DNA of 59,384 bases, the filler included, from Sphacelaria rigidula (taxonomy: Eukaryota), in assembly GCA_964200075.2 (NCBI GenBank). It is 10 parts of 10 records of this genome, joined end to end, with 100 filler letters (N's around TTAATTAATTAA, not from the genome) between each part and the next. Parts side by side here need not be neighbours in the genome. Positions count along the whole stretch, not along the records: positions 23,797 to 29,645 come from CAXNAA020023992.1; 9 more parts are not named here. One strand, written 5' to 3'. Within the stretch, counting starts at the first letter, position 1, and the number at the start of each line of letters is the position of its first letter. Under the pieces are notes generated by a model that was given only the letters and a program-made list of their open reading frames with translations, was not told the origin of the DNA and did not search any database. A program made the translations under genes and the position numbers. Below, piece by piece: positions 5,850 through 53,537 of the stretch.

Positions 5850-5949
5850 NNNNNNNNNNNNNNNNNNNNNNNNNNNNNNNNNNNNNNNNNNNNTTAATTA
5901 ATTAANNNNNNNNNNNNNNNNNNNNNNNNNNNNNNNNNNNNNNNNNNNN
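5850..5949. other. Artificial contig spacer N44-TTAATTAATTAA-N44 (also 11799-11898, 17748-17847, 23697-23796, 29646-29745, 35594-35693, 41542-41641, 47490-47589, 53438-53537)
   Basis: Identical 100-nt linker with stops in all six frames, between contigs of 5847-5849 nt sorted by length. Confidence 0.99.
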
Positions 5950-6262
5950 TTTCTCGTATTATTGTCCAGAGGCCGCTCTCAAAATCTCTGACCCAAGCGA
6001 ATCGGAAAAGTGGGCTAGGCTCCTCTCGGTGGGGTGATACAAAGTGTCCAAGACGTGTGGTGGCGATGTTCCCTGTTTGGGGGTCAAAAAACCTTGCCAA
6101 ATGTCCTAAAAGTGGAAAATGCGAGCCAAACAAAATACAAACCGGAAGAAACGACCTAACAGATGAATAATCAAGGAGAACCATCTGTTGCATAGCTCAT
6201 CAAGAGCGTAAGGAAATTCGATAGTACAAATTTACTCGAATGAAAGCGCAACACGCGCGCAA

Positions 6263-7905
6263 TGGTTTCCCCTGACACATCCAGGGATTTCGGATATAAT
6301 GAATGGAGGTATACGTCCCGCGGACATGTTTGATGATGTGGAGAACATTCAAGGTGCCGAATCACTTCCGGTTGCCCGACCCATGTCAAGATCAGCTCCG
6401 TCACACACCTGCTCCCAAGGAACCCCGCCGTCTTCATCTCAAGAGGCAGCCGAAACAAGTCATCCAGTTGAGGACCCGTCTGGCGGTGAAGTGGACTGTT
6501 CCCAAGAGGACACACATGTGAGAAATGCGGTGAACATATCTGAAGTTGAGAATTGGGATCGCTGCAACGAACAGTTGTTCGACATTCTATACTTGACAAC
6601 TACACACCCAGCGGGCAGTTTTCTTGTTCGCTTCGAGCCGAAGGATCGTGCAAGGCCTGACGGTAAAATTGCATGGGGTGTCCTGGTCGGTAAACACGAG
6701 AACTCTTTGAAGCAACTGCGGCGCATTTTCATGCGTCAGCTAGATAACATCAAAATGTCACCTGGGCAAGACCCTGACGTGTTTCTAACCAAGGTCTATG
6801 AACTTCGTGACCAGCTAGTTTACATGGGTGGACCCATTTCAGATGAAAGAGTCACGGACATCGTGGTGGAAGGTTTGACCGATGAATACGATAGGATCAA
6901 GTGTGATGCAGAAAGCGACCCTTGTAATGCGTGAGGTACTTAAAGGACCGCATCGGAATTCAAACACCCCTATGGTTAGGGTTAGGGTTAGTGTTAGTGT
7001 TGGGGTTGGGGTTGGGGGTTAGGGGCATGGTTCCTGCAGGGACTGGCCCGATTGATTTCGAAAAAGTTCGATCCTGAGTTGTTTTGGACGACGATGCGGT
7101 CCTCTAAGCACGCGGTCCTGTCACGCATAATACCCTGACTTCAGTATCTTCGACATCGAAGTCACAACGAGGAATATGCACTCAAATCGCGTTACACGCG
7201 GAATTCTGCCAAAGGGAGTACGCGGACGTGATTCCGCCATGATAGCAGCATCGCCGCTTGATTCATTTGCAAAACTTACAAGATTCGCTGGAAAATGTTA
7301 TTCTTGTGGTAAACCAGGTCACCATGTGCGGGACTGTCGTCCTCAAAGACAGTCTCACAGAAGGAGCGGGCCTGTGAAGTGGTGCAGCCTTCATCGTACC
7401 GATAAACACGACAATCCCGAATGCAAGAGTCAAATTACCAATGGTGGTGCGTCTACGAACAGCAGCAGGAACGACAACTACTACGACAAGAACAACCATC
7501 GCCGTCGTCCCAACACACGCAACAATAACAGTAACTCCGGCTTCAGCGCAAACAGCATCATCAACCATCCGAATCAAGCTAATACCGCCACCATGGGTCC
7601 TGCATCAACTACTGCATCAACTACTGCATCAACTACTGTTCCTTCCAACAACCAAGTCCAAGACACCAGCGGACCTTCATCTTCAACAATGCCTGACTTA
7701 TGCTCGCCACCAAGCGGCATTGGCGATGGCTTTTTTGCTGATCCTGCAGACAAGGACAACACTCGGTCACCGGTTTCTACATAATTCAAGATGGTATGTG
7801 ATTCCGGGGCCAGCCACTATTACATTGACGATCGGCTACAGACCAATATTGAAGAGGAGATGTTTAACCGTGTGAAACTCGATTATCCCATGAAGATTCT
7901 TATAT
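6263..7905 (+). mobile_element. Ty1/Copia gag-protease remnant, interrupted by a MITE and truncated by an RTE LINE
   Basis: Gag-like WGVLVGKHEN...DPDVFLTKVYELRDQL...GLTDEYD; zinc knuckles CYSCGKPGHHVRDC and WCSLHRTDKHDNPEC; protease motif VCDSGASHYYID near 7795-7830. Confidence 0.85.
6923..7132 (+). mobile_element. MITE with TGT-type TIRs, 4-bp TSD CCCT and an internal telomere-like (TTAGGG)n tract (Ginger-like)
   Basis: TGTAATGCGTGA...TCACGCATAATA flanked by CCCT at 6919-6922 and 7133-7136. Removing it restores the gag frame ESDP-DFSIFDIE. Confidence 0.85.
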
Positions 7906-7907
7906 GA

Positions 7908-10900
7908 ATTGATTTTTGATTGATTGTCGCACTTTCACTGACCCCCCAGGGGTCCAGCCGTGGTCTCATGATAGTCGTACCCAAGAAAACGAAAATGAAA
8001 CACGCTCTGAGATAAAAAGAAGGAACAGAAAAAAAAAAGAGGAACACACAACAATGAATAAGTGGTCGAACAGAACGACATAGCAGACTAAGTCGTGACA
8101 AAAAAAAGTAATAAAAAAGTCAACACAAGCGAAGCACAGAAAGAAATGGACGACCTGAAACAAAACAAAGGAAAGGAGAAGGAGAGTACAAAGCAAATGG
8201 AATAAAATACAATGAAATTATGGGAAAAAAAGAAAAAATGAAAAGGCTCAAGGGAATCAGGGCAGGAGAGTAGATACAGACACACACCAGTGGGTACCGC
8301 AGAGCCACCGACTAAAGACATAATCAACAACCGATATGAGCGGACAGGATTTTCCGATTGGCAGCTCTCGACGCAGCAGCCTCTCGCTTGTGACGGCGGT
8401 CTGGTTCTCCCTTGTCCGCGCGTCGCCACTTGTCCTCAAACTTTTCCGCTCCCTTTTCGACTCCAATATGCCATTTGCCTAGGTCCTTCGCCGCAGTGAC
8501 CCAATCGTATGGATCGTTAACCTCTACACCGTAGACGAACCACTCTCGTCGGGCTCCTTTGTGCGGGATAGCCCCGAGCGCACATAGTAGGTTCTCCTGT
8601 AGGGTATCCTCCCATTGCTTGGGGGGGCGGCCGACCTCCTTGGGTCCTCGTGTGGAAAGTCGACCGTTCATGACACGCTTGGGAAGGCGTGTCTCCTTCT
8701 GCCGGACAAGGCCTCCCGCGAACCAGAGTTGACGTTTGCGGATAGTCGTCTTGATACGTTCGCAGTTGGTCATCTCGAGCACCGCTTTGTACGAAGTCTT
8801 GCAACCATTGCGATCGTCCCTGCGGAATCCAACCACTCGTAGCAAGAGCTTGTGATGGGCAGAGCGCAGACTGTCGAAGTCCTCAGAAGTAGCGTCCATG
8901 TGGCACACCCATACAAGAGAGCTTCCACCACCTCTGCTTTAAGTAGTCGAACTTTCAGGGATTGCTGGGCGTTGGGTCGGTCGTAGAGTTGGGAGCAATA
9001 GTTTCGGATACGCGCCCACGCCGCGATGATACGGTGGTTGATTTCAATGGACATTTTCGCATCCGCTCTGATAGCTCCACCAAGGTAGATGAACTTCCCT
9101 GTCTGCTTATATTGTTGACCGGCAGCTCTGATATCCAGGGTGGCCTCCGTGGGACTGGGTACTGACCAAAGACGCATGGACTCTGTCTTGGTCTCGGAGA
9201 TCATCAGGCCGAATTCATGGCAGGTCATCACTAGCACGGCCATCATTCGAGCAAGGCCTTCTGAGGCCTTCGAAGCTATGCCGGCGTCGTCCGCGTAAAG
9301 CATTGCCCACACCGCGCGTCGCACCTTTTCCAGTGGTGTCTCTTCCACGGGTTCACTACCGACACCTTGTGGCGCATCATCTAGGAAGACCAAGTCTGAG
9401 ACGATGAGTGGGTCCGCCGCAAACCGCTGGACGATCACTTTCACCAAGCCTGCTCCGAAGATGTTGAACAGCAGCGGAGAGGAAACGCAACCTTGTCTGA
9501 GTCCCTGGCAAACATCGAACCACGCTGACTATCCAGCTGTACTCGAGCTCGCATGCCGTCGTGAAACATACGGATGAGCGTGATCATTCTTGACGGGACT
9601 CCGAACCGAGCAAGCACTTCCCACAGGAGCGTGCGGTCTACAGAATCGTAGTCTTTCTGCAGATCTATAAAGCACATATTTATTGGGATGTTGCTCGCCC
9701 GTCCCAACTCCTGGAGTCGGCGTACTACGAACATCATGTCTATGTATGGTTGATCTTTAGCGCCTAAATCCACAATGCTCTTCCGGGAAGATATCTGTTT
9801 CCTCACAAAAACCATCGAGCCTGTTGGCTAAGATTGTGAGGAGAACTTTAGCAGTATGTGCCACAAGTGAAATTGCCTCTGTAGTCACTACACTGGGTCC
9901 TATCTTGTTTTTTGTGTAGCACTTTGATGGTGACATCTTTCCATTCTTACGGCACCTCGGCAGATGTCCAAACCGCAGAGACGATGTCGTGGAAGTGGTA
10001 CAAAATGTCCGACGCCTCCCCGTTGAGTCCAAGTTTCAGGATTTCAGGAGGAATACCATCCGGACCGGTTACTTTGCCGTTCGACATAGCTCTCAGAGCC
10101 TCCACAGTTTCACTTGGGCTTGGTGGGTCTGCTAGCGACAACGCTATTGGTCGTTGATCAATCTTCTCGATGATGGTGCGGTCGATAGTTACCGATATGG
10201 CGTTCAGCAATGTAGGAAAGTACCGTTCCCATCTCCCACTGATCAAACCTCTGTCCCGGAGTAAATTTCCGTCCTCATCTCGTATATACTGTTCACTTTC
10301 GATTGGTCGTCCAGACAATCTCCACCCTCCGTTGAGATGTCTGTACCATCCTCTCATGTCCCCCGCTCGAATATGCTCCTCTAGTTCTGGAGCATACACA
10401 TCCATATATTTGTCAACCCGAATCTGAATCACTTTTTTGATTCTTTTGCATGCTGTTCGCAATATGCGCCATGCGAGTTTATCTCCATCGAGATGACCCC
10501 AGTCTCACCATTGATCTCGCGCCTTCTCTCTCCATCCAAGCGAGCTCGAATTCTGCTCTGATTTCAGCATCCTCGAACCACCACGGTATACGTGGTTTTC
10601 GGGTCAGACGAGGTACCACCTTTCAAGAGTACGTTGGCAAAGTTCGTAGCCAGTGAACTAACTGTATCCCCCGGTATACTCTGTTCGAGCTCGCTGCTGA
10701 TGAGCTGGGTGAGCTGCTCACGTCTGACGGGGTCATATACTATTGCCCGTCTGTCGATCGGTGTACGCCCAGTTGGGATTCGTCTAGGTCTGCTGTGTGC
10801 GAAGCGACCAAGGAGCCGCACTGAGGCGCACACGATGTTGTGGTCAGAGTCCAGCGAGTTGGGGGGTTGAAGGTGGACGGTGACATTGCGGACGAGCTTG

Positions 10901-11798
10901 CGGTGATCTTACCGTGTGATGATGTAGTCAATGCGTTTTCTGTCCGCGGGGCGATTTGCAACACCGTTGAACGTACGCGAGGTGTTTCCCTTGGGGGTGG
11001 AAAAGTCGTGTTGACCAGCGAAAGATTGTTGTCGCCTGCAAATTGTACTAGAGAATTGCCGTCACCGTCGTTGGATTGGGAATCTCGACCGTAAGCCCCT
11101 ACAAATTTACGTTCCTCCTCGCCTGTTCGTCGTCCAGTCCTCGCATTAGCTTCCATTGAAATAAGCAGGTGATGCTTGTGGGGGATGCAATTCACATTGC
11201 CATCTAACTCAGCCCAGAACACATCTCTTTCTTCTCTTGACTGTGGAGTGTCTGTCGGGGCGTAGGCAACGACAAATGTCGCAGCATTTGATTTACCCGC
11301 TAGGTTGAAAGTCATTGACATGAGGCGTTCGCTCATGAGTGCCTGAATCCACGCCGCCTTGCTGATGATCGACTGCTTGACTGCCAACCCAACCCCATGT
11401 TGACCAGCCCTTCCCTTGCCCCCCTCTGCCCCGCAACAAAAGACGCGGTATCCCGCCGCAGAAAATTCGGATCGACCTGTTCTCCTCGTTTCCTGTAGCC
11501 CGATGACATCACATCCGACTACCTGACATTTTTTCAGGACCACCTCAGCATGACCCGCTCCGTTCTTACCCGTGAGGGACAGTGAACGGACGTTATAGGT
11601 GGCCACTTCGAGCTCCCCACTACGTGTCCTAGCTTTAACCTTCTGTATGTTCACGCGTCTTTCTCTCTGTTCTGCTCCCCTTTTTGGTCTGTTGCGCCTT
11701 CTAATTTTACGAGCGAGCTGTTGTTTCTGTTCCGATTTTGCTTCGGTACATTTATCACGGTACTTGCCTTGCTTGTTGGTCTCGCGGGAAGGGTGCAG
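7908..11798 (-). mobile_element. RTE-clade LINE (APE + RT), frameshifted, with T-rich 3' UTR and (TCAA)n tail
   Basis: APE motifs ATYNVRSL, DVIGLQETRR, VVAYAPT; RT motifs GPDGIPPEILK, FIDLQKDYDSV, LYADD, LLYGCATW. The 3' end reads ACCACGGCTGGACCCCTGGGGGGTCAGTGAAAGTGCGACAATCAATCAA. Confidence 0.95.
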
Positions 11799-11898
11799 NN
11801 NNNNNNNNNNNNNNNNNNNNNNNNNNNNNNNNNNNNNNNNNNTTAATTAATTAANNNNNNNNNNNNNNNNNNNNNNNNNNNNNNNNNNNNNNNNNNNN

Positions 11899-18976: not shown

Positions 18977-19560
18977 AATACACGTGAGTGTCAATTCGAG
19001 AAGTGCTTGGTGGACACAGTAGTGCTGGACTGCTTTCTGCGTTGACTTGTAGTTTCTAGGTTTCCAAGAGTATACTACAACGAGATTTAACAATACGTGC
19101 TCACATACGGTCGATGAAACAGCGTTTGAGCTACAACTCTATCGGACCTTTGCATAGAAATGGATGTGTCAGTGATCTTCGGTGGTGATGATTGTACGGT
19201 GCGCTGCCGTTTGTGTTACCTCTTTCATCCCATGCATGCACACAGTATGTACAGGGTTTTTGAGACGGGCTATCCCTTAGGATCCCTCGTGAACGTACCA
19301 CCGTGCGGATGCAGTATTCTTTTAGTAGCTGCAACCCTCATGGGGCTACAACGAGGGCAGAGCACGACGTTAGATGTCGTACCGAGTACATTTGTGGTGT
19401 TCCCACACAGTTGAAACCGGTGGTAAAGATCGAAGCGATCATTTAGGTCGAAACGATATGACAGATTTAGGAAACAGACGAAGACTATAAATACCAGGGG
19501 TCTGTCAAAAAAACAATCGGAAAACGTACGCCCCCAAATCAAAAGTTTGAGTTTTTGAAC

Positions 19561-19620
19561 GGAGGGGGGGGCGGGGGGGGTACTGATGATCTTGCGTGCT
19601 TCCGTCATATGACCGTTGAC
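19561..19620 (-). mobile_element. Short 3' end of poly(C)-tailed retroelement, subfamily P2
   Basis: Reverse complement reads GTCAACGGTCATATGAC...GCAAGATCATCAGTA followed by a C tract; homologous to 50170-50211. Confidence 0.65.
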
Positions 19621-19846
19621 TACTTCCAGAGACAGCCATGGCTTACACGTTGCCTCATGAGTGTGTTACCATTTCAAAACTACGCAGTACGGTCATCCAC
19701 TTTGCGGGAGTTGAGGTCCTCCAACCCGCACAATATTATTCAGCTCGACCAAGATCATGGTTACTGCGAAAAAAACGCTAGCGCGCAAAACAAATCGGGA
19801 ATCTGATTTCCTAGCTTACGCAGTGAGTGGCGTGTTTTACAGCGTC
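19621..19846 (+). repeat. Dispersed repeat R (~230 nt), second copy at 49268-49505
   Basis: Shared blocks GACAG.CA.GGCTTA, GGAGTTGAGGT, AGCGCGCAAAA and TGAGTGGCGTGTTTTACAGCG. Confidence 0.75.
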
Positions 19847-23796: not shown

Positions 23797-24063
23797 GAGA
23801 GAACGGGGGTTCGATTCCCGATGCGTTGGGTTTTCCCTTCGTGATGTATGATTTCCACCGTGGAAAGCGTGAAAACGTGAGCAAATAAAATAGTCGACTG
23901 GGTTTGTGTGACGTGAGTTGACGTGGTGCGGGAGTGCTGATCCAACCCGCGAGACCAAAATGAAAAGCACGTACCGGGAAAGAGAGTGGTCAATCCCTTG
24001 AGACCACGGACTCATCCCGAGGAAGGGCGGGGGAGGGGGGGTTCAAAGTGTGAGGAAAAAAAA
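23797..24063 (+). mobile_element. Candidate tRNA-headed SINE with an RTE-like 3' end
   Basis: B-box GGTTCGATTCCC at 23808-23819. The 3' part GAGACCACGG...GGGGGGTTCAAAGTGTGAGG(A)n resembles the RTE terminus; a similar end lies at ~41660-41719. Confidence 0.4.
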
Positions 24064-24141
24064 GAACAGCACAGCACAGTACAGCGCAGCAGCATCTGTG
24101 ACTGCAGTAAAACACGGTACGGGACCACGCAGTACGTCACG

Positions 24142-24179
24142 GCAAAGCAAAGCAAAGCAAAGCAAAGCAAAGCAAAGCA
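24142..24179. repeat. (GCAAA)n microsatellite
   Basis: Seven tandem GCAAA units. Confidence 0.95.
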
Positions 24180-24344
24180 CGGATAAAACTACAGTTCTTC
24201 ACAATACAACGGCACAGCACGGCTCAATCAAGCCTACCCCAGCAGCCTTGCACGAAGAAAAAAAAAACACATCAGCGCGGGGAGTACGACAGCGCAACAC
24301 AACACACACAGCCACCCTCCCTCACCCTACCGATACTCACGTAC

Positions 24345-24524
24345 CTGTGCCATTTTGCTCTCGTCCATGCGCAGCGTGTAGACTATAGTGCGGCCCAGGG
24401 GCGACGCACTTTGCGGCAGATACAGTGCTATTTCATCGCCTTGCTTTAGTGGGCGCGTGACCTTTTTCCCGAGCTTTATCCCGTTTATCGAAGTCCCGTT
24501 GCTGCCAGGGTCACGTAGTCGCAG
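24345..24524 (-). CDS. Exon or pseudo-exon encoding the C-terminal half of an FHA domain
   Basis: LRLRDPGSNGTSINGIKLGKKVTRPLKQGDEIALYLP matches the FHA S-NGT-vNG...L..GD-I pattern. Donor is CAG|GTACGT; no canonical acceptor was found. Confidence 0.7.
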
Positions 24525-25109
24525 TGTATCGGCAAGCGTGGGGCGAGGTGGAAGGAACGCGATTGGATGAAGCGATCACGTGTATCAACCACGGGATTCT
24601 CGCCCGAGCCACGCCGTGACTCCACCAACCCCTCCCCGCGAGACGACGCTCTGGACGGCGGCTCGTTTCAATACTCTGGCACTTACTCATCTTTTAGCAG
24701 GGGATGGAAAATAAAACGAAAACAAGGCATTCGCAGTATGTGTGCGGCGACAGCTTCAACAGCCCAACGCGACCTTCGGCCCTCATTCACTGAGGTTGCT
24801 TCGTTATGCGACATGACTCGCTCTGTTATTTACCAATAGCCTTGGCAGTTGCTTCTCGTGTATCTTCCGCGGATTGCGTGGAAAATGACCACATCTACCG
24901 CGTATGTAGATGGGTCGCACAGGAAACCCTTGAGGGGGGGGGGGGGGGGGGGGGGGATGCCGGTGTGGGAGACAGAAAAAAAAAAAAAAAAAGGAGGAGG
25001 GAGGGAGAGAGAGGAGGGAGCCCACCCCACAGCCNNNNNNNNNNGAGGCGATGCGGGTGGGGGGGGGGCGACGCGGGGGCGGGGGGGGGGGGTGGGGGGG
25101 GGGGGGGGG

Positions 25110-28100
25110 CTTTTGCAGAGTGCTACGTCGACACGAAGATAAATGGCAACGGCGGAATAGCAGTAGACATCAGCGTCCGACCACAGTGCCTGTGCCACGG
25201 CCGAGATAAAACAGGCGGATGAGATGACAAGGAATCATCAAGTGGTTGATATACAAATCACTGCTCCATGTGGAGACAAGAATAAGCGCGTAGTTCCGGG
25301 CCAAGGAATTGAGTACCTGGAGTCTACAAGAGTCTGCAAGAAAAAGCAAAGGACCGTTACTGCTGGCCAGTGAAAAGCGACTTGGAAACCGATAATCCAC
25401 CCCGCTTTGTCAAGGAACACCTGTGTGACAGAACAGAAGTGATCGACGACACGAAATTCGACGAGAGCATATCGATAAGGGTACCAGGAGAGGGGGGAAC
25501 AAGGGACTTCTTTGTTGGGAACATCTATATGCCCCCCCCAGGATCGTAGAGTAGGGTATACGATATACAGCGGAGGTTTGAAGAGATAGCAGCAGATGTA
25601 CACAAGTACAAAAGGCAAGGAGGGGTAATGTTCGTAGGACATTTTAATGCAAAGGTTGGAAATGCAGGTCAACCGGACAACATCATTAGGCGAGACGGGG
25701 AAGATAAGAGGAACACGAATGGAGTAGAAATGCTGAAGTTTTTTGAGGATAACGCTAGATGAAGACGCTGGACGATAGAGCACAAAAGCCAGAGGCGTAA
25801 TGGACATGGACTAGAAAATGCAAAAATGGGATGGAACGCTCCGTTTTTGACTATACAGTGCTAGAGCATGGAAGTAGTAAAGAAATGGAAGTACAGGTAT
25901 GCACGGAGGACGTGGGAACTGCAGAGCATTGCCTAATGCAGACAGAAGCCAACAGGCGAGAGCAAAAACAAATAGGCGGGGAAGGAAGTTGTACAAATGG
26001 AGAATCGATAACCTAGAAATGGAAGAAAAACAGCAAGAGTTTCAAGAAGAGATGGCCAAAAATAAAAAGCGACATTTTCCGAGCTGTTGGAACGCGTAAG
26101 TACAGCTGACACCGAAACGGCACGGGATCAGGCAGGAGCGAAGATTATAAGAGGATGAGAGCAGCTGATCAAGACCACAGCGATTAAAGTCATGGGGAAG
26201 AAACTGATCGTATGCAACAGAGCAGTAACATGGTGGCATGATGGAGTAAAACAGGATATAAAGGTAAGGAGAGAGGCCCACGCGTGATAGATATCGAGTA
26301 AAACTACTGCAGGATGGGAGAAATATACCAAAGCTCGAAAGGAAGTAAAAATGATGGAGAAGAAAAAGAAGGGAGTATGAGAAGATGTAGTGGATAAAAC
26401 AAGTGAAGATTTCGATGGCGGGATGAAGCGAATGTGGGTAGAGATACAAGGGATCACAGGAAACCAGGCAGGAAAAATAGACAAGGGGATGGCCACAATA
26501 CCGGCAGAGAATGGTAAAACGGTCAGTGAATTCAAAGGGGAAGAGAGAAGTGCTAGTAGAGCACTGCCGTAAATTAGGAACACCGAAAACAAACACGAAG
26601 TTCGACACGGAATTCGAAAAAAAAACGTGGGCAGAGGCAAATGTAGAGGCGTAAAAACGGGAGGGTAGTGGCTTGAAAAAATTGCAGAGAAAATATACCA
26701 GAGATAAAGTAAAGGAGTGTGTAGCTAAACTCAAGAATAGAAAGGTAGCAGGGGGCAGACGAAATAGTGAATGAATTCTCAAAGTACGGGGGGAAGGGAA
26801 TTATTGCTATAACGGTTATGCTGTATAACTGGATCTGGAAAAACGAGTACACACCCGAGAAGGTGGAGACAAGGAATAGTAGTCAACCATTTCAAAAAAG
26901 GAGACAAGGCTGACCCAGGAAATTTTAGTGGGATAACGCTACTGAGCGCGGTGGGGAAAACATTATGTAAGATTCTGAGCGATAGAGTAGGAACGATACG
27001 AGAAAAGGAAGACAAAAACAGCAAGGGGCAAGCGGGTTCTAGACCAAACCGTGGTTTCGTACACCATGTGTACACACTAGGTAAGATTATTCTAGGTAGG
27101 AAAGACCCCAGGCTCACGTACTGTTCCTGGACGTGCAAAAGGCTCATGACATAGTGTGGAGAAATGGGCTCTGAAAGAAGTTGTGTAAAACTGGGATCAG
27201 AGGAAAGATGTGGGGAAAGATGAAGAATATGACAGAATGTGTCAAAAGTGCGATGATCCTAGAGGGGGAGATATCGAAATACTTTGGTATTTTACAAGGA
27301 GTTACACAAGGATGTACGTTATCACACACTTTATTCAAGGTATTTTTCGATGACCTAATAATGACGACACACGCAGCAACGGCAGGAGTCAAGGTCGGTG
27401 GAGATATGGTATCATACCTGATGTTCGCGAATGATTTTGTGGGTGCATCAGGAACACAAAAACGATCGCAGAAACGACTAGAGAAAGCGCTAGAATACAC
27501 CAGGAAATGGAGAGTAGCAACGAACGCTAATAAATACGCGGTACTCGTATTTAACGAAGATAAGAAAAATCCGGTATAGAGTTCAAATGAGAGTGGGGAG
27601 AAGAGTAACTGCCAATTGTAGACCAGTACACATACCTTGGTCGGAGAGATCTCAATAAACTGTTCTTGGGATGCACACATGAATAAAGTGATAAAAAACG
27701 GTAAGGCAAAGATGGGCAAGATGGACGTGATCCTCAGAGCCTCGCACCTAGATACCAGGATTAAGATATGTGTTCTGATTAACGTGATTATACGAAAACT
27801 GGAATATGCAAGAGAAGTATGCGAGGTGCACGTGAAGTTGGTGAAGAAGTTGGAAACAGTACAGATGGCAGCAGCGGAGGACATACTTGGGTGCTCGAAA
27901 ACGACGAGTAATACAGTACTGAGAGCAGAGTTGGGAATGTACCAACTCAAATCAGAGACATGATAAAATTGAGAGGCAATATGACATGAAGAACATGCAG
28001 AGAAAAATATTGCTAGCCATGGTTGACAAGGCTGCATGGAAGAAAATTACGAAAGGGCGGGCCGGAATGAGGTGTGATAAAGAAGTCGAGAAAGTATGGA

Positions 28101-28766
28101 AGGGGACAGGAGGAAGCCAATACAAAATACTGTCCGTAGGTGAAGGCGCGGGGTACAAGACAAAAGTAAGGCACACGATAAAATAAGAGGATAAGAAGCG
28201 CTCAGACGCAAAGTAGACGAGGAAGAACACCTGGAGATATACGGGGGGTTGAGAGAGGGGATACGGATGAAAACATATCCGCATGGCCCAATAGACGCGG
28301 CGAAAAATCTAAAAGTGCGATATCGGGTGGGGGGCCTGGATCTGCCAGAGAGAAGAAATATATATACCAGTGGTCGAGAGGAGGAGATAGCAGATGCACA
28401 GAATTGCCTGTGTGGCGAAGCAACAAAGAGCAGAACTCATATGGTGGCAGAATGTGAACCATACAAGGAGGAACGGGACGTGCTAGAGGGGGAGATGCGG
28501 GACGTGAACAAAGGTGGCATGGCATCCTTTGATGCATAGGACAGTAGCGAGAAAACGATGGGTATACTAAGAGATAGATGGTGCCAACAGGCGGCGAAAC
28601 AAGACGGGGATAAGATATGTAAAAGGCTTTTGTGTAGTGAGTGGAAGAAACGTAATGAGCGCCGGAATGTTGGAGGTGTCTCAATTAGGAGTAGGGACGG
28701 TGCTCCGTCTCGAAATGAGTGCGTGACCAGCGGTCAAACGACTGAGTCAAGCAACAAATAAGTACG

Positions 28767-28804
<38 letters not shown>
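25110..28804 (+). mobile_element. Decayed APE-RT-Zn-finger LINE (RTEX-like) ending in a poly(C) tail
   Basis: APE: IYMPP, GHFNAKVGN, NTNGVEMLKF, FDY. RT: KVAGADEIVNEFSKYG, GQAGSRPNR, FLDVQKAHD, GVTQGCTLS, LMFANDF. C-terminal CLCGEATKSRTHMVAECEPY. Stop TAA at 28759-28761, then GTACG, then a C run at 28767-28804. The 5' limit is uncertain. Confidence 0.92.
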
Positions 28805-28806
<2 letters not shown>

Positions 28807-29058
28807 AAAAGGCCTTGGTTTCTTGGAGCACCCCCGCCCCCCGAGGGGGACAAAACTGGGGNNNNNNNNNNCCCCGTCCGGAAAACAGTGCGGAACCACC
28901 GGTCAAACACCTCAGTCCAACAACAAAAAAGCACGCCCCCCCCCCCCCCTCCCCCCCTGCCCACTCCCCAAAAAGAGTCGCTTGGTTGCTGAGAGCTCCC
29001 GTGCCCAACGAGGTTAAGATACTGGGTGTAGACGTTCCCGTGGTGCTTCGTGCTTTCA

Positions 29059-29307
29059 GAGTCATTCTACGATAGGGGGGGGGGGGGTCGACTCCACGAA
29101 AATGGGCTCATAGATGCTTCAGGCGACGTAGCACACGCGCGGTGCGCCTGTATTTCGGAAAAAGCGGTGTCGAGCGGAATGAATGAGCGTTATTTCTCGG
29201 GAGCAAGCACGTTTGAAAAACCATTGCTGCCATCAACGACGATTGAAAGTACAATATCGTGTATGAAAACGGCCCAAAATACCCCCCCTCCCATCGTAGC
29301 ATGACTC
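29059..29307 (+). mobile_element. MITE family B, TIR GAGTCAT(T/G)CTACGAT(A/G)GG..., 4-bp TSD TTCA (Sola-like termini)
   Basis: TTCA at 29055-29058 and 29308-29311; GAG...CTC ends; homologous to 32987-33339. Confidence 0.88.
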
Positions 29308-29559
29308 TTCACGGTACCTGGATGTGTCCAAGACGGCCGCTTCGATACCGTCCCCGCGCGCTCGTGGTCGGAGAAAAAAACAGCAGTGACTGCTACTGAT
29401 GTACGATAGCTCGATCGTCGTCTGCGCCTGACCTCCCGGTGCCTTCTTCACTCGCCCGATGTAGTTGGTCTGACACACAACGCCGAGACCATGACAAACA
29501 AGGAGAGCGACGAGGTCCGCAGTCGATTAGTTGACCCAGGGAAATACTCATTTTGTGGC

Positions 29560-29645
29560 ATTTACCCGACAACAGGCACATCGCCCTGGCCACCAAGATC
29601 AGCCTCCTGAAGACTGAAGTGATTGAGGTGATGTTGTACGGGTGC
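29560..29645 (+). mobile_element. RTE LINE RT fragment
   Basis: IALATKISLLKTEVIEVMLYGC parallels LKVRLLKAEVVEALLYGC of the contig-2 RTE. Confidence 0.75.
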
Positions 29646-29745: not shown

Positions 29746-29884
29746 TTGACCCTTCCCCACTCCTCCCTTGGGAGACGGAGCGCCCCGTTCCTCCTTCCTC
29801 ATAGACACCCCTCCAACGTTGGGGTTGGGGGGGGGGGAAGGGTGTACTTATGATCTTGCATGTCGTAGTCATTAGACCATTGGC
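29746..29884 (-). mobile_element. Two stacked poly(C)-LINE 3' ends: P1 at 29746-29818 (noisy) and P2 at 29843-29884, separated by a G tract
   Basis: GAGACGGAGC...AGACACCCCTCCAAC matches the reverse complement of 28669-28712. GTGTACTTATGATCTTGCATG...AGACCATTG matches P2. Confidence 0.65.
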
Positions 29885-30183
29885 GAGGGGGGGTAACGTT
29901 GCTTGAGGGTCATGAATACATCACCGGTATGCAGCAAAATGTAGGTTGATGCAAACATAACACTTCAAGTCCCGTATCGAGTAAGTAACACCTACGAGAG
30001 AAGCATGTGTACTCAGGGGAGGGACTTTGCCAGCTACAGGCCATGGCTCCCTCCCGCCCTCCTCCGCGCATTTACATGATGAAAGAAAAATCTTGCGAAA
30101 GTCCAGCACAACAACTCATGGTACAGTACTTGCCATCGTCATCATCTACAGTGCATAGCAGGTACTCCCATCCTCATAGGAGA

Positions 30184-30717: not shown

Positions 30718-33700
30718 GATGTGAACGGGCAAGCCGGATTATCCCGATTATCCGCCACGTAGCACTCAGCGAATGAGGACACCAAGCGGTCTATCTTCTG
30801 GGACTCGCCGGGCAACCTGAACCCGCTGTCCGTGAGCAAATGCCTCAGAGCCTCCTCGAGCGTCATGCCATGGAAAGCGATGGCGCGAACATACTGCAGC
30901 CGAATAGCTTTCCAGTAGTCCCCCTGACCCGTGTTTATGTAGAACATGAGAAAAAAAAACAGAGGAGGGTTGCCAGGGTGCGGTATACATTTTTTAAAAG
31001 ACTACATACTTACAACACCAGATTTCCTCGACCTTTTTCCCTAGTTGACTAAAGCTGCACAAGGGGGAAAAAAAAATGCCGAGACGATTCGGCTTCGGCG
31101 AGTCTTCCCGTCTATTTACCCGAGGCACGTCCATCTCGTAATCCCGGGGTGGCGTCGTAGCGCATCAGCTAGTCGACGACGACGGATCAACTAATCAATC
31201 GATGAATCGATGCGCTCGCACTACCACTTGGTCTAATGACTCCTTCCAACCTTCTTCCCCATAAAAATTCACGATCTTTCAACAACCAGGACAATCATCA
31301 ACCTTTCAAATAATGAGGGAGGGAGGGGCGGGCTTCACACTTTACCATGTTCCTGTGTATGCTACGCAGGAAGAGCAGCTCCAATATGCATTGTTCAAAA
31401 GCTCGACTAAATCCAACAACAAACCCGGGACGATCCACTGTCCTGCAGCAACTTCCAGACCACAGGCGACAACATATGTAACCTTGGGAGCCACGGAATC
31501 CCGCTTGGGCAGGCGGGGAGTTTGCTGCGGTATCACGCCAACCCTCAGACAACGAAAATACGTCACGTGTTGAATCGGCATCAATTTCACTTGAAAAAAA
31601 GTATGCATGAGACACTTTCTACGATAGCTCCCCCCCCGCCCCCCTAAAAAAAAAAAGCGCCTGGTTTGGGGAGGCAAAATCTTCACGTAAATCGAAATGG
31701 GAAAAGCCGAGCACGACGAGCCGCTGGGAATTCCCACGCCTGGGTTCGTTGTCGACAACGTCGCCCATATGAGGCGCTTCATGCAGCCTGAACCCAAACA
31801 TCAGGCGCTGTGCGACCTTTTTTTTCGTGACACTTTTGGGCTATTTTTTTGGGGGGGGGAAAGGGGGGGGGTGAGGGGGTCTATCGTAAAAAATGTCATG
31901 ATCCAATTTTACTACCCCCACGGTGCAAGGGTCAAGTCTAGGTCCACAACTTTGCATTTCTGGGCGGGTAAATAACCCACGTCCTCTTACGTCATCAAGA
32001 TCCGGCTCGCCAAGGAATTCGCCGATGCTGAGAGGGTCCAAGTCGTCCTTGTAGATCCGCAAAAAGTTGGCGATGTCCCTATCATTATCCATCCAGACAA
32101 AACCATCGAGAGAAGAGAAAAAAAAATAGCGCTGACGTCAGACAGTGCTACGGTCAAATAGTGCGAAGGTCAGTGCTAAGGTCATACAAACCTCCGTGAG
32201 ATTCAAGTATCACATTTTTTTTTCCTAGTGAATACCCTAGTAAGCGGCCGTCACATCGAGATAGACACGTCGTTCTGGTATTTTCACTCTTTCGGGACCG
32301 AACCTCGACCAAGCAGGGGAGAGGACCCGGTCTGCACGCAAGATCCATTGGTGAATCCGACTCTTTACACGGTGGTCATTGTCGTGCTAGCCATCATAAT
32401 TTAGACATTTGCACACGTCGGACAGCCGACGAGCCACCTGAATATTACTTCTTATTCCAAGGACCGAAGCTGTTCAGAGTACGGCGGCACGTGCACTGCG
32501 CCAACCTGACAGCAGGCTTTAGTGGGTCGGACCCCCACACTGCCTAGAGCAAAGCTTGGGAACGCTCGAGGCGCCTACCCCGAATGACTGCCGTAACGCA
32601 GTCCCACCGAGCCTCCGAGCATTCGACACACGAGCCCGTTCGCGCGATAAGTTTTGGGTCAGGTTTCCCCCTTCCTTCAAAGAGAAGAAAAAAAAATACA
32701 CTCCTTCGTGATATACTGATCCGGATCATGAGCTACAATACCTGATTTGATCCCCTTTGTCCCCCATTTTCTCCCTACAGCGCTGGACGCCGAGCACTCG
32801 GAGTATCGCAAAGGTAGGGATATAACTTCTCCGACCCCGCTGTCACGTCTTGTGTGTTCTCGGACGGGGGATCTGAGAGTCCTCTTCGATTCGTTGTTTT
32901 TGGTATCTATAATAGATCATGAGCTGTCTTACGTGTGGACATTTGACTCATAAAAGTAAGAAGAAACCTATTGATGACAAGTATCCGAGTAATGCTACGA
33001 CAGGGAGGGGGGGGGCGTACTTATTTGTTGCTTGCCTTGGTCGTTTGACTATTGACCATGCATCCCTTTCAAGACGGAGCACCGATAGGGGGGAGTATTT
33101 TGAGCCCTTGTCTTCAACAACATTCCACTTCAATCGCCTTTGAAATCAGCCAACAGTTGTTCGAACGCGCTTGCTCCCGATAAACAACGCTCATTAACAC
33201 TGCTCTATACACCGCTTGTACCCAAATAAAAACGCATCGCGAGTGCTCCAGGTCGTTTGACGCATCTATCAACACATTTTTTCGAGGAACCGAACACCCC
33301 CCCCCTCCCCCTATCGTAGCCCTTATCGCAGCATGGCTCATCCAGAGTGATGCATGGCGTGACCACCTCACCGTGGAGTATCCGAAATGAAGTTGGAAGC
33401 CACCAGGAACTGTACAGCTTTCTTCAGGCCCTTGGTGCTGTACAGGTGTAGGGCTTGCGCGACGACCTCTTCTGCACGATTTCGCAGCTCTTTGCAGTAT
33501 CTAGCAGTCGAACAACGAAAAAATACGAACGCAGAGCCCGTGGGAAACGGACGGGCGGATGGACCGGAGGGGGGGAGGCATGGAGTAACGATTCAAATGA
33601 AATAAGAAAAGAAAAAAAAAGAAGACGGAAAGAAGATAAAACAAGAGAGAACAAAAAAGACAAGAAACATGGGAAAGAAGGAAAAAGAAAAAATAGAAAA

Positions 33701-34498: not shown

Positions 34499-34764
34499 CT
34501 GAAAAAGTGCGTGCGAACAGAATGAGAGAAGTTTTCGTCAGACGTCGATCAGCCCGCAATGATACATACTGATTGATTGAGTTGGTTGATTGATTGGCTT
34601 GGCTGATTATTATTCCATATCCTAAACAAAAGAATACACAGTCAAAAAGTGTATCGTATACAGTATCGACTCTCGCGCCTATTGCAACAGACAAAATATT
34701 CAATATTGTACGCGGTACATTTTTTGACGATATGATGTAATGTCATTTTCCAGGGTGTGGATTA

Positions 34765-48249: not shown

Positions 48250-51200
48250 TTAGGCGAGGTAGTTGTACGCACGTCTGGCGCACCAAAAAAAATAAGCACC
48301 AAAATGGTTGGAAAATACAACCGACGGAGGCACGAGATTGGCAAGGGGGGGGCGAGAGGGCGGACGGAGGGAAGTACCGTGCTTAGTTTCTTTGAGTTTG
48401 TAACATGAGGTGCCGAGAAAAGTAGAGCAGAAGCGATGAAATTCTGAGGCATTTTGCACCGAGTACAGATGAATAAATCCGCCTGTTGAGTCGAAACGAG
48501 CAGCAGACAAACAAAAAAGTGGTTCCGCAATATACCCAAAGAGAGAAAAGGCGGAGGTTGCGATATCCACTGAAACTTTACTGTCGAGAAGAACTTCCCT
48601 CGGCCCGCCCCCTCCCTCCCCGACGCGCATCGAGTAGGTATGAGCACATCCGCCGTTCAGGTCGACACGGACAGCAGACAAGCAGACAGGTGGGAAATAG
48701 TTCCGCAACATATGAAAAAAAAAGGAGTGAGATGATATCCACCAAAACTTCACCGTTGGGAAGAACGTTCCCTGGTCCGTACCACCCCCCTCTTCCGCAT
48801 TCCCTCCCCCTCACCTGTCGCCACGGTCCCGTTCCAGGTATTCTCGGTCAATAAGGCTCTCGATGCGCGATTTGATCACGTGTGGAGACGGCACGAATCG
48901 GCTCGAAAGCTGGCGTGTTACCTACGTGTTTTCACGTAAAATACGATACGAGAAATAGCAAAACAAAAAAGGAGATCGGGGCGTGGGGGATATAAAAAAA
49001 GGGGGCGCGGGGGGTGTACTCATGATCATGCATGCCGTGATCATGAGACCTTTGACCTCGCATACAAAGCCGGGACGGAGCACACCGGGTTTTTGACGGA
49101 CCAGGCTCGCACTCAATCACCAAGCGCGAAGCGCCGTGATGTGTTCGGCGAATCGCATGAAGGGTGAGCTGTATCCTGCTAGACATTGTTCGGCCCGAAG
49201 CCTACTGATTATCTTGCATTTGGATTACATACAGCCTGCAACGAGCTGCTTCATTATCCGGCATCACTACTTTCGGCGACAGTCACGGCTTATGCACTGC
49301 CTTGTAGGTGTTTAACCATTTACACACTACGTAGGGCGATCATTCCTATTGTGAGGAGTTGAGGTTCCTTCACGCTGCACAACATGATCTAGCCCGACTA
49401 CCATCATGATTACCGCAACAACAACAAAAAAAGCCAAGCGCGCAAAAACAAAAATCGATAACCTGGTTGCCTATCTCACGTAATGAGTGGCGTGTTTTAC
49501 AGCGCCATCGCCACCCGACGCCAACCCCCATCGGAGGTCCACCCCTACAAAGCCGGGACGGAGCACGCCGGGTTCTCGCCGGACCAGGCTGAGGGGGGTG
49601 GGGGGGCACGATCTGTGATCCGGGATCCAGAACGTAGGATCCAGGATTCCCGAAGAATAAGACATATCATCACTACAAGAACGCTGAAAACTGACTAGCG
49701 CCAGCACCCAGTACAGTAAGAAAAATAAACAAGCAAAGGAAACAGATTTATGACTCATCGATCGTGCAATATCGCAATCGAGTGTTCCTTCATGAAATAG
49801 ACCGCACGCTCGGCGGCATTAGCTAGAGGAATACAACGATAGAGCACAGGACAATGACGCGTGGGAGATGCCATTAAATTAACGCAAACATGCAACATGA
49901 CCCCACAACCCAGTACACGATAATTGTATCTCTTGGGAATATACACGACCTGCCTCACGCAATCTTGATACATCAACGAACCAATCCTCCGTATCACCAA
50001 AAAAAACTACTAGACCCCGCCCCGCCCCTCCGAATGATCTTAGCAGGGTGCAGCTCACCTTGCATGCGACTCGCCAAACACACCACGGCGCTTCGCGCTT
50101 GGTAATTGAGTGCGAGCCTGGTCCGGCGAAAACTCGGCGTGCTCCATATCGGCTTTGAAGGGTTGCGAGGTCAATGGTCTCATGACAATCACATGCATAA
50201 TCATGAGTACACCCCGCCCCTCCCAAAAAATAAACAAACGAATATCAAAGACTAGAAATGAACATGCGCCTTGTCCATCGCGCTTGACCCTCACCTCTGC
50301 TACTAGCTCATTGTGCCGGAGACTTTTCCGCGCCTTCATGATGCGCACCACCGCCGCTTCCGTCAGATGTCTGAGTACAAGTCCACATTTCATCAACCAG
50401 GGGCCGAAAAAAAAGGTTGGTTTTTCTCATCTTTATTCACGGCGTGACAAAGCAAGTTGGGGCAAACACACAAAAAGAAAAATAGTCCAGTATTCACCAA
50501 AAGCGAAGAGTTGTTCTTACAACATAACTCAATATATCGGAGCGCGCCCCAACACACGTTTCGCCTCGCGTATGGATCTCGCTCGAGGGTAACAAAAAAA
50601 CATGATTGTGACCAGACTCTAGACTCTAGTCTTGCCTTTCGGTCGTCACCCGAACACCAACCAACACGGGATTTCACAAATTGGGGATGGGTGTTTTTTT
50701 GAGAATAAAAAGCACGGAAAATTAAAATCTTCGTATCAACACCAAATCGTCGAAATATAGTTCCATTTATTCACTTGCTGGTAGCAATTGACAACTACTA
50801 CACGCGATACAAATTTGGATTTCGATAACCGAAATATTGGGGTATTAGGTGAAGAAACAATTTAGGGGAATTTCAGCCATCTGGTAAATTCCCCAAAAAT
50901 AGTCTTCACCTAGGACCACAAAAGGTCGGTCATCAGGATCCAAATTTGTATAGCTTGTAGTAGTTGTCAATAGTCACCAGTAGAAGAAGGAGTGGGACCA
51001 TATTTCGAAGATTTGGTGTGGACACGAATATTTTAATTCTACGGGTTCTCGTCCTTAATGAAACATCCATCCCCAATTTGTGAAATCCCGTGTTGACCAC
51101 TTTAAGAACACCAACAAAGTAATCCCACGACGAAGGGGAGGGGGAGGGGGGGGGAGCGTACTCATTTGTTGCTTGCCTTAGTCATTTGACCACTGACCAC

Positions 51201-52348
51201 GCATCCCTTTCGAGACGGACCCACGACGAAGGGGACAGATGTTCATCGAACCATCTTCTCCCTCGAAGGAAAGCCACTCTGGAGCGTCGATGATGACACT
51301 AAACTACACGTGAACGCTCTCGATAGCGTCAAGATCAACACACGTAGTCAACACCCGCCTGACAACGTTTTACTTCGTGCAACCAAGCATCCCCCTCCCC
51401 CCCAAACCTCCTTCATGGAATCTCCGCCGATCCACCGATATCAGCACCGGTATCACTGCCACTAATCACAACGAGACCATCATTACCGCTTCCACTTCAA
51501 AAATATCGTCCACTGCCGAACGATCGCCGCGGACTCACCGGCACCAGCACCAGCACTACTGCCACCAATCACAACGTCACCATCATCACCGCTTCTACTC
51601 TCAAAATACCCCCTTAGTTATAGGATATCTGCCAATCCACCGGCAGAAGCACCAGCACTACTGCCACCAATCAAAATATAATCATCACCACCGCCAACAC
51701 GCAGAAAGTCAGCAAGCACTACGGTAAGCGCAAAAATGCCCATGCTTTTTCTAGCTCATGTATGCTCTCCATCTCCGCTCAAAGGATAAGGAGTAGATAG
51801 GTCGGTACGAGAGCAGCGAAGCGAACAAGGACTCGAATCACCGTCTCGCGGAGCGGGGAGGAGAGGGGTTGTGCCGAACTCATGATACTGTAGAAAGCTT
51901 GTGGGAGAAGTATACGATTATTCAGTTCAGTTACACGAGTGGTAACGTAGCTGAAAGCCAAAACAAAATTCAGGTACTGTACCAACACTGTATTCTGAAC
52001 TAACCCCACCCCCCTCCCTTTCCTCCGTCTCGAAAGGGATGCGCAGTCAATGGTCAAACGACCAAGTCAAGCAACAAATGAGTACCCCCCCCCTCCCCCC
52101 CCCTCCCCCTCCCGGCACACCAAGCACCACTTCAACATCACCACCATCATAGCACGTACTCGACATACTGTACGTGGATAATTTAAAACGTACCTCCTGT
52201 CTTCCTCCACGGCAGGCGGGAGCGCCTGTGTCGCCGGCCCCGACGCGGAATCCTTCACGCTCACCAGCGGTATCCGCACACGCTTCAGCTTGGACGTGAA
52301 GTCGCGGTTGAACGAGAAAGTGTCATCCGGACCCGAGATCCCCTTGCC
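48250..52348 (-). CDS. CUL3: Cullin-3-like protein, C-terminal part; exons 52348-52194, 50370-50295, 48921-48815, 48274-48250
   Basis: Spliced product ...[17 protein letters not shown]...[74 protein letters not shown] contains the neddylation motif VRIMK. Phases are consistent. The CUL3 subtype is judged by resemblance. Confidence 0.93.
48480..48810. repeat. Diverged intronic tandem duplication, period ~175 nt
   Basis: CAGCAGACAA...GTTCCGCAA...GATATCCAC..AAACTT...GAAGAAC occurs twice. Confidence 0.7.
49001..49193 (-). mobile_element. Poly(C)-tailed element P2, ~180 nt
   Basis: Reverse complement aligns end to end with 50030-50211. A further P2 fragment lies at ~49546-49590. Confidence 0.85.
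49268..49505 (+). repeat. Dispersed repeat R, second copy
   Basis: Homologous to 19621-19846. Confidence 0.75.
50030..50211 (+). mobile_element. Poly(C)-type element P2 with 12-bp TSD CCCCGCCCCTCC
   Basis: TSD at 50020-50031 and 50212-50223; the element ends ATCATGAGTACA. Confidence 0.88.
50662..51095. mobile_element. Foldback MITE, CAACACGGGATTTCACAAATTGGGGATGG...CCATCCCCAATTTGTGAAATCCCGTGTTG
   Basis: Perfect 29-bp terminal IR, with imperfect arms continuing to a small central loop near 50877. Confidence 0.92.
51140..51219 (-). mobile_element. Poly(C)-LINE 3' end P1 with 16-bp TSD
   Basis: CCCACGACGAAGGGGA at 51124-51139 and 51220-51235; extra G tract at 51140-51154. Confidence 0.93.
51440..51700. 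repeat. Intronic minisatellite, about three units of 85-105 nt
   Basis: GCACC(A/G)G...CTGCCAC(C/T)AATCA...CATCA..ACCGC repeated three times. Confidence 0.75.
52023..52097 (+). mobile_element. Poly(C)-LINE 3' end P1 with degenerate ~15-bp TSD
   Basis: CTCCGTCTCGAAAGGGATGCG...GCAACAAATGAGTAC followed by a C tract; flanks CCCCCCTCCCTTTCC / CCCCCCTCCCCCTCC. Confidence 0.88.
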
Positions 52349-52994: not shown

Positions 52995-53315
52995 TACATA
53001 TCTAGTCATACATGAATACTTTGAAGCCCCATCTTGTCTGCATGACACATACAACATAAATACTCTCCTGGGCTTTTCCCACAGCCACCCGGCTGTGACC
53101 TCATCAGCATCCTTCCTCATGAAATAGGCGGTGGTATGGCTTCGATTCTACTTTACTTCTCTCAGTGCTCTCGCAGCTACCTTCCATCCTTCAAGGGGGC
53201 GAGGGGGCGGGAGGATGCTTGCTTGCGTTGCGCAGAATAATGTAGCAAAAGCGTATATCCTGCGGTGTGCGTGTTTCGTCGTTCCAAGTAAGAAGGAAGA
53301 GTGAGCACGGGGGGG

Positions 53316-53382
53316 CGTACTCATTTGTTGATTGCCTTAGTCATTTGACCATTGACTACGCATCCCTTTCGAGACGGAGCAC
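53316..53382 (-). mobile_element. Poly(C)-LINE 3' end P1 with 13-bp TSD GAGCACGGGGGGG
   Basis: TSD at 53303-53315 and 53377-53389. GAGCAC is shared between element and target (5' microhomology). Confidence 0.9.
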
Positions 53383-53537
53383 GGGGGGGGGGGGGTGGAA
53401 GGGGCGCGCGTTTATACTCCGTGTATCATCTTCGCGTNNNNNNNNNNNNNNNNNNNNNNNNNNNNNNNNNNNNNNNNNNNNTTAATTAATTAANNNNNNN
53501 NNNNNNNNNNNNNNNNNNNNNNNNNNNNNNNNNNNNN

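Follow-up and report, generated by a model that had tools for sequence, protein, structure and literature searches.

The locus analysed here raises the question of whether a LINE of Sphacelaria rigidula ends in a homopolymer of C and, if so, how such an end would serve the element. The whole stretch of DNA that we analysed (the window; 59,384 nucleotides) consists of ten pieces of ~5,849 bases joined by N44-TTAATTAATTAA-N44 linkers (at 5850-5949, at 11799-11898 and thereafter at intervals of ~5949 bases), so features that lie in different pieces are not genomic neighbours. The LINE locus is in piece 5 (23797-29645), which is interrupted in two places by an N10 scaffold gap (25035-25044 and 28862-28871). 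At its 3′ end the element at this locus (the long copy) reads agcaacaaa, a TAA stop codon (28759-28761), GTACG (28762-28766) and then an uninterrupted run of 38 C; its final frame segment is ...TTESSNK*. The letters at 28759-28804 thus bear out what the initial annotation had described, namely an ORF ending in SSNK*, followed by GTACG and a C run of ~38 nt. The figure of 38 is the length as assembled, and our contig comparison leaves out 28753-28861 as repeat.

The initial annotation took the coding region upstream of this end for an APE-RT-Zn-finger ORF. An RVT_1 match at 27175-27579, the sole Pfam match and found in one of eight broken ORF pieces, and a CCHC-like motif (CLCGEATKSRTHMVAEC) within the segment 28195-28539 agree with that description; the frame, by contrast, is not open. 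Comparison of the window with the intact 1360-aa protein P0003 by tblastn gave collinear pieces at 25352-28758 that match P0003 residues 217-1360 only; the pieces are spread over the three frames, which requires nine or more changes of frame. A TAG stop codon stands in frame at 28537-28539. Judged by its sequence, the locus is a dead, 5′-truncated member of a LINE family with APE and RT in a single ORF, probably of the type that the Ectocarpus curation calls RTE-X. We claim no target-site duplication (TSD) for it; only AAAAAG is common to both flanks. A candidate TSD at 25373-25386 was dropped, as it lies inside the protein-homologous region. Some 240 nt upstream of the truncated LINE there is a G-rich block (24934-25109, comprising G23, A17, a GA-rich stretch, the N10 gap, G10, G12 and G16). 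By contig depth the sequence around it is single-copy, and the strand opposite this block carries no tail module.

The best relatives of the window copy are P0001 (655 aa, 63% identity) and two full-length proteins, P0003 and P0004 (1328 aa). In each of these two, a single ORF contains Exo_endo_phos, RVT_1 and, after them, a C-terminal part of ~370 aa with a CCHC-like motif. A further protein, P0005, is assigned by its source to Ectocarpus sp. CCAP 1310/34; in the last 450 residues it has 95% identity to P0004 and 71% to both P0001 and P0003. All four proteins have the C-terminus ...NGAPSRKG.V.NGQMT.ASNK in common. By this kinship the host is very probably a brown alga or something closely related, and one of the runs in which the stretch is found bears the label 'algae metagenome'. 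The window copy shows 60-64% identity to the P0001/P0003 lineage and a lower 53% to the P0004/P0005 lineage, which carries the Ectocarpus label. Among solved structures, human L1 ORF2p (8uw3_A, E 6.6e-21) is the closest by sequence, matches in the ESM Atlas were to generic RT clusters with animal taxa only, and a scan of viral contigs with P0001 returned no relative. Contigs of four runs gave a very high summed word depth over the LINE when compared with 25050-29645. In one of these runs, X1, the summed word depth, which is not a copy number, rises from ~0.49 million at 25358-25511 to ~2.6 million at 28592-28745, and contigs specific to the window copy have a depth of 62-77. This profile shows a highly repeated family with a 3′ bias. 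Elsewhere in the window there is a second APE-RT LINE (8770-11798, minus strand), which has Exo_endo_phos and RVT_1 matches and is only 23-27% identical to P0003. The window also holds a mixed telomere-like run at 6974-7035, with (CCCCAA)3 and (CCCTAA)3 on the minus strand, which adjoins a Copia-type gag ORF at 6212-6934, and, at 34569-34608 on the minus strand, a tandem repeat of (TCAA)-like units, noted earlier as an RTE tail.

A search of the window with an nhmmer model of the tail identified nine significant copies of the 3′ module, five of family P1 (the long copy among them) and four of family P2 (Table 1). The eight short copies listed in the initial annotation (P1 at 33016, 51156, 52085 and 53316; P2 at 19581, 29843, 49015 and 50211) were all recovered, each with E ≤ 3.4e-6, and a further partial P2 module lies near P2b at 49590-49546. 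The copies had been said to adjoin C tracts and to lack poly(A), and the proposal would have been weakened had most of them run into A-rich or random sequence. A C-rich run directly follows the module in 9/9 of the window copies, and poly(A) follows it in none. The motif TRAGTAC occurs 21 times in the window, as compared to 8.9 ± 2.7 times in shuffled sequence; requiring a C content of at least 55% over the following 20 nt leaves nine of these, and they are precisely the nine tail copies. The window (59 kb, 50% G+C) contains 11 C runs and 13 G runs of at least nine bases, far above chance; several of them are LINE tails or their duplicated targets.

Table 1. Features of the LINE locus and copies of its 3′ module, in positions of the window
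Feature	Position	Strand	nhmmer span	Details
APE-RT LINE coding region	25352..28761	+		5′-truncated and frame-shifted; tblastn pieces of 43-70% identity
Conserved ~67-nt 3′ module of the long copy (last 20 codons, TAA, GTACG)	28698..28766	+		nhmmer E 6.6e-19; aligned with 9 other copies
(C)38 tail	28767..28804	+		TRF: 38 copies at 100%
N10 gap (28862-28871), then copy B	28862..29013	+		noisy second version of 28705-28861 (module, C run, flank)
P1 copy C	32995..33094	-	33083-33016	module 33083-33016, then C9TCCC; nhmmer E 7.2e-21
P1 copy D	51124..51234	-	51221-51157	65-nt module 51219-51155, tail C9TC5T 51154-51139; nhmmer E 5.9e-22
P1 copy E	52009..52113	+	52020-52085	module 52020-52085, then C9 T C9 T C5 T CCC; CCCCCCTCCC on each flank
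P1 copy F	53303..53389	-	53383-53316	module 53383-53316, then C7; CCCCCCCGTGCTC at 53389-53377 and 53315-53303
P2a	50041..50224	+	50138-50210	~175-185-nt non-coding unit; P2 module 50138-50211, then CCCCGCCCCTCCC; CCCCGCCCC on each flank
P2b	49001..49181	-	49084-49016	module 49084-49015, then C6GCGC5; 84.6% identity to P2a over 175 nt
P2c	29815..29901	-	29884-29844	5′-truncated module 29884-29843, then CCCTTC11AACCC; CAACGTT flanks 29901-29895 and 29821-29815
P2d	19560..19623	-	19623-19580	partial P2 module 19623-19579, then C6GC8TCC

The C run is the terminal part of the element, as is indicated by the TSD of copy D, the empty site of copy C, and the ends of relatives outside the window. Copy D has a perfect 15-bp TSD (51234-51220 and 51138-51124) that sits immediately outside the 65-nt module and its 16-nt C-rich tail; the duplication begins with CCCC, so that the whole run reads C9TC5TCCCC. 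Copy C is inserted in the terminal C run of another repeat, repeat X, of which an empty paralogous site is present at 29283-29310, and comparison of the filled site with the empty one indicates that the module and C9 were gained between two versions of CCC-T(A/G)TCG. Besides the perfect TSD of copy D, C-rich repeats flank copies C (TCCCCCCTATCG at 33094-33083 and TCCCTGTCGTAG at 33006-32995), E and F on each side. TSDs could not be defined for P2b, P2d or, as described above, the long copy. Sequence beyond the C run is unrelated from copy to copy.

Repeat X itself is ~230-250 bp long and occurs at 29059-29310 and at 33319-33089 (minus strand), with 74% identity between the copies. Its inverted ends (GAGTCAT.CTACGATAG plus a G run, and a C run plus T.CCATCGTAGCATGACTC) give it a MITE-like look. 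Sequences consisting of a C run plus T.TC.TCGTAG, resembling the end of repeat X, come after copy D and after L018, one of the relatives described below, and the motif CCCCTRTCGTAG (with at most two mismatches) occurs 20 times, as compared to 5.6 expected.

The same ending is found outside the window. We scanned metagenome contigs with an 18-mer from the tail that does not include any of the C run, and three of the 40 loci returned (L004, L018 and L033) carry the whole module (nhmmer E ≤ 2.5e-23). In all three the module is followed by G and a C-rich run whose longest uninterrupted stretch is 7-10 C, whereas none of the 37 chance matches to the 18-mer is followed by a C run of more than three. 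A fourth relative, L041, is 98% identical to the intact P0001 and ends in AAATGAGTACG plus C13, after which comes an unrelated G-rich flank. The contig concerned (CBRFFM010000043.1) is filed under a MAG titled 'uncultured bacterium'; this eukaryotic LINE, near-intact on that contig, is probably there as a binning contaminant. Thus GTACG plus a C-rich run (longest stretch 7-13 C) ends 4/4 of the outside relatives, and the poly(A) end typical of L1 was found in none of the 13 copies, nine in the window and four outside it.

These features are best accounted for, with a probability that we put at roughly 0.8, by TPRT carried out by an RTE-X-type LINE for which the ~67-nt module is the recognition element and in which a templated C tail pairs with a G run at a C-rich target. 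In intact relatives, an ORF of ~1330-1360 aa (an N-terminal part, APE, RT, and the C-terminal CCHC-like part) runs to a stop codon that is followed by only 5 nt of unique sequence (GTACG), and the element itself ends in a variable run of C. The module, on the RNA, would be what the reverse transcriptase recognises. On a C-rich target, the endonuclease would nick the bottom strand at a run of G, and this G run would pair with the C tail of the RNA and prime cDNA synthesis, the outcome being C-rich TSDs that start with C. The duplications of copies D, C, E and F do start with C, as such pairing of G run and C tail at the nick would predict. Human LINE-1, whose ORF2p likewise combines APE and RT, offers a parallel: its homopolymer tail pairs with a complementary run at the nicked target, T-rich primers pairing with poly(A), and its TSD starts with the base of the tail. 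The poly(A) tail of L1, however, arises from polyadenylation, and L1 differs further in its long 3′ UTR and its separate ORF1; the element described here has a C tail, a 5-nt 3′ UTR and one ORF. The suggestion in the initial annotation that this lineage uses a C homopolymer as its 3′ priming tail therefore stands as far as the ending goes, given the TSDs outside the C run, their C-rich starts, the 4/4 relatives, and the presence of the module on non-coding partners; the priming step we infer from the anatomy of the copies.

Alternatively, the element proper might stop at GTACG without any tail and insert specifically where C runs already exist, in which case the C residues that follow it would be duplicated target only. 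With C runs on each side of copies E, F, P2a and P2c, tail and duplicated target are inseparable in those four; the empty site of copy C already has C7TCCC; and the wording '(C)n termini/TSD' used for RTEX-2 in the TE table of PMC12477816 would suit this alternative too. Copy D, however, is difficult to explain in this way, as its upstream TSD is preceded by TGT rather than by a C run and GTACGCT is separated from the downstream TSD by sixteen additional C-rich bases. The C38 of the long copy gives way to an A-rich flank and the C13 of L041 to a G-rich one, and the same table gives '(C)n 3′' for RTEX-1a. We therefore consider an element without a tail unlikely.

Highly improbable, in our estimation, is polycytidylation, in which a nucleotidyl-transferase activity would add C residues to the RNA or cDNA without a template. 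The variation in tail length, from 7 to 38, is what such an activity might produce. Templated copying together with slippage, the course we favour, fits the interrupted tails (C9TC5T and C9TC9TC5T) equally well or better, and the C runs at presumed source-like intact copies such as L041 fit templated copying equally well or better.

More improbable still is that the C run is internal and that the element continues beyond it. Continuation of the consensus past the C tract had been listed at the outset among the findings that would speak against a C tail, and copy B on its face provides it: positions 28705-28846 align by blastn with 28874-29013 at 76% identity over 143 bp, the C run and downstream sequence included. 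The two versions are separated by the N10 gap, and transversions make up 20 of the 28 substitutions between them, whereas G>A and A>G predominate in the divergence of the long copy from its family. Moreover, contigs of two independent runs match the downstream side of copy B with 0 differences (28937-29086 and 28933-29086), and, with 28753-28861 left out of the comparison, the downstream version in copy B is the only one of the two to be matched exactly. The sequence that follows the C run in the long copy and copy B is present in none of the other eight window copies and in none of the four outside relatives. The adjoining gap, the transversion bias, the exact contig match and the unshared downstream sequence suggest that copy B is probably the same locus assembled twice across the gap. 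It is hardly credible that the C runs are sequencing or assembly artefacts, even with both N10 gaps of piece 5 adjoining C/G homopolymers and the length of C38 known from the assembly only, as the same ending recurs in contigs from four further assemblies and in an Ectocarpus library curated by hand (PMC12477816, TE table), and as C runs sit inside TSDs.

The terminal C tract is preceded by a module that the LINE shares with shorter elements. The P1 and P2 tails align over ~67 nt; in P1 this stretch codes for the last 20 residues, and in P2 the same module terminates a non-coding unit of ~175-185 nt. The earlier suggestion that the 3′ signal overlaps the coding end is upheld by this arrangement, the conserved module covering the last 20 codons and recurring on non-coding partners. 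Between P0003 and P0004, 20 of the last 21 residues are identical, as compared to 73.8% of the last 450, which fits a double constraint on the module as protein and as putative RNA signal. RNAalifold proposed a closing helix (GUGCUC/GAGUAC) and an inner hairpin; a compensatory change was found in 1/17 pairs of the consensus helix, and the single-sequence folding energy was no better than that of shuffled sequences (z = -0.44). Given these values, we claim no structure for the module.

The 5′ ends of the four short P1 copies are clustered in a 7-nt span, where the 5′ arm of the possible GUGCUC/GAGUAC helix lies, and in contigs of two runs a C run is joined directly to the same module start. The uniform 5′ ends and the junctions in the contigs raise the possibility that these ~65-nt, tail-only copies are a discrete minimal retroposon rather than random 5′ truncations, a reading we hold to be doubtful. 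If true, a module of ~65 nt plus (C)n would be sufficient for mobilisation, and would make a natural compact TPRT system with priming of a C tail by a G run. We found no Pol III-type head in the P2 or tail-only units (ARAGORN reported 0 genes, and Rfam, on the window, 0 matches at the gathering score); lacking a detectable tRNA, 5S or 7SL head, they are not SINEs in the strict sense.

An end of this kind has been catalogued before. The initial annotation knew of no described poly(C)-tailed APE LINE, and had listed an already curated family with this tail among the findings that would undo its proposal. Novelty fails on this point, because the TE table of a study of the Ectocarpus TE landscape (Genome Biol 2025; PMC12477816) describes the same kind of element: RTEX-1a_Ec32 (5867 bp) is entered as 'single EN-RT ORF; (C)n 3′' with a 'C-rich' TSD, and RTEX-2_Ec32 as '(C)n termini/TSD'. 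The element in the window is at most a further family, or a dead copy, of this known kind. In that study RTE-X makes up 3.41% of the genome, in 16,418 copies, and is recognised by best blastp to RTEX-4_NV or RTEX-1_BF. The table rows consulted in PMC12477816 contain no mention of a 5-nt 3′ UTR, of an overlap between module and ORF end, or of ~65-nt tail-only copies and their uniform 5′ ends, and its main-text passages on poly, tail or homopolymer contain no discussion of the C tail. A literature search on poly-C or C-rich tails gave no transposon paper among the matches listed, a search on poly C tail and retrotransposon found none, and the available part of a Chlorella RTE-X paper (PMC11005252) holds nothing on tails.

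Our assignment of the element to RTE-X is indirect, made by anatomy, by the description in the PMC12477816 table and by the Ectocarpus protein P0005, and is to be read as provisional. The anatomy comprises a single ORF with APE followed by RT (in P0003 and P0004, the window copy being collinear with P0003 217-1360), a (C)n 3′ end (9/9 window copies and 4/4 outside relatives), C-rich TSDs (copies D, C, E and F), and non-autonomous partners that have the 3′ 60-100 bp in common with the LINE (here the P2 units, with their ~67-nt module). Like RTEX-1/2_Ec32 as tabulated, the element has a single EN-RT ORF, a (C)n 3′ end, C-rich TSDs and a high copy number, and P0005 has the same C-terminal ...ASNK end; the window copy is nevertheless closer to the second lineage, that of P0001 and P0003, and is likened to RTEX by the table description. 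The short elements of that table, RTEX-N1 (607 bp; '60 bp 3′ end 83% RTEX-1_Ec32/RTEX-2_Ec32', 'can be present in tandem') and RTEX-N2 (188 bp; 'could be SINE'), have their 3′ 60-100 bp in common with the LINE and resemble the P2 units in being short and non-coding, in having only the 3′ end in common with the LINE, and in their C-rich TSDs. The tandem occurrence recorded for RTEX-N1 may be compared, by description only, with the junctions of C run to module in the window and in contigs. The P2 units are ~175-185 nt long, and are without a tRNA, 5S or 7SL head. The Ectocarpus RTE families RTE-1/2_Ec32, entered in the table as '(CAA)n 3′', are also similar: they have a single EN-RT ORF, very little 3′ UTR and an end made of a simple repeat, and their partners have only the extreme 3′ end in common with them. 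Unlike in these families, the repeat unit of the element described here is a single base, C, and its RT is followed by a long C-terminal region that includes a CCHC-like motif.

Where annotation relies on finding poly(A), the ends of these brown-algal elements, which are very abundant, will be misplaced, and the scattered C/G homopolymers that derive from such LINEs occur together with scaffold gaps and duplicated contig ends, 28862-28871 being an example. To date the C tail is on record only as a note in a table (PMC12477816), with no discussion of mechanism found in the parts of the literature that our searches covered. As a system in which a target G run would prime TPRT on a C tail, these LINEs are a candidate for experiment.
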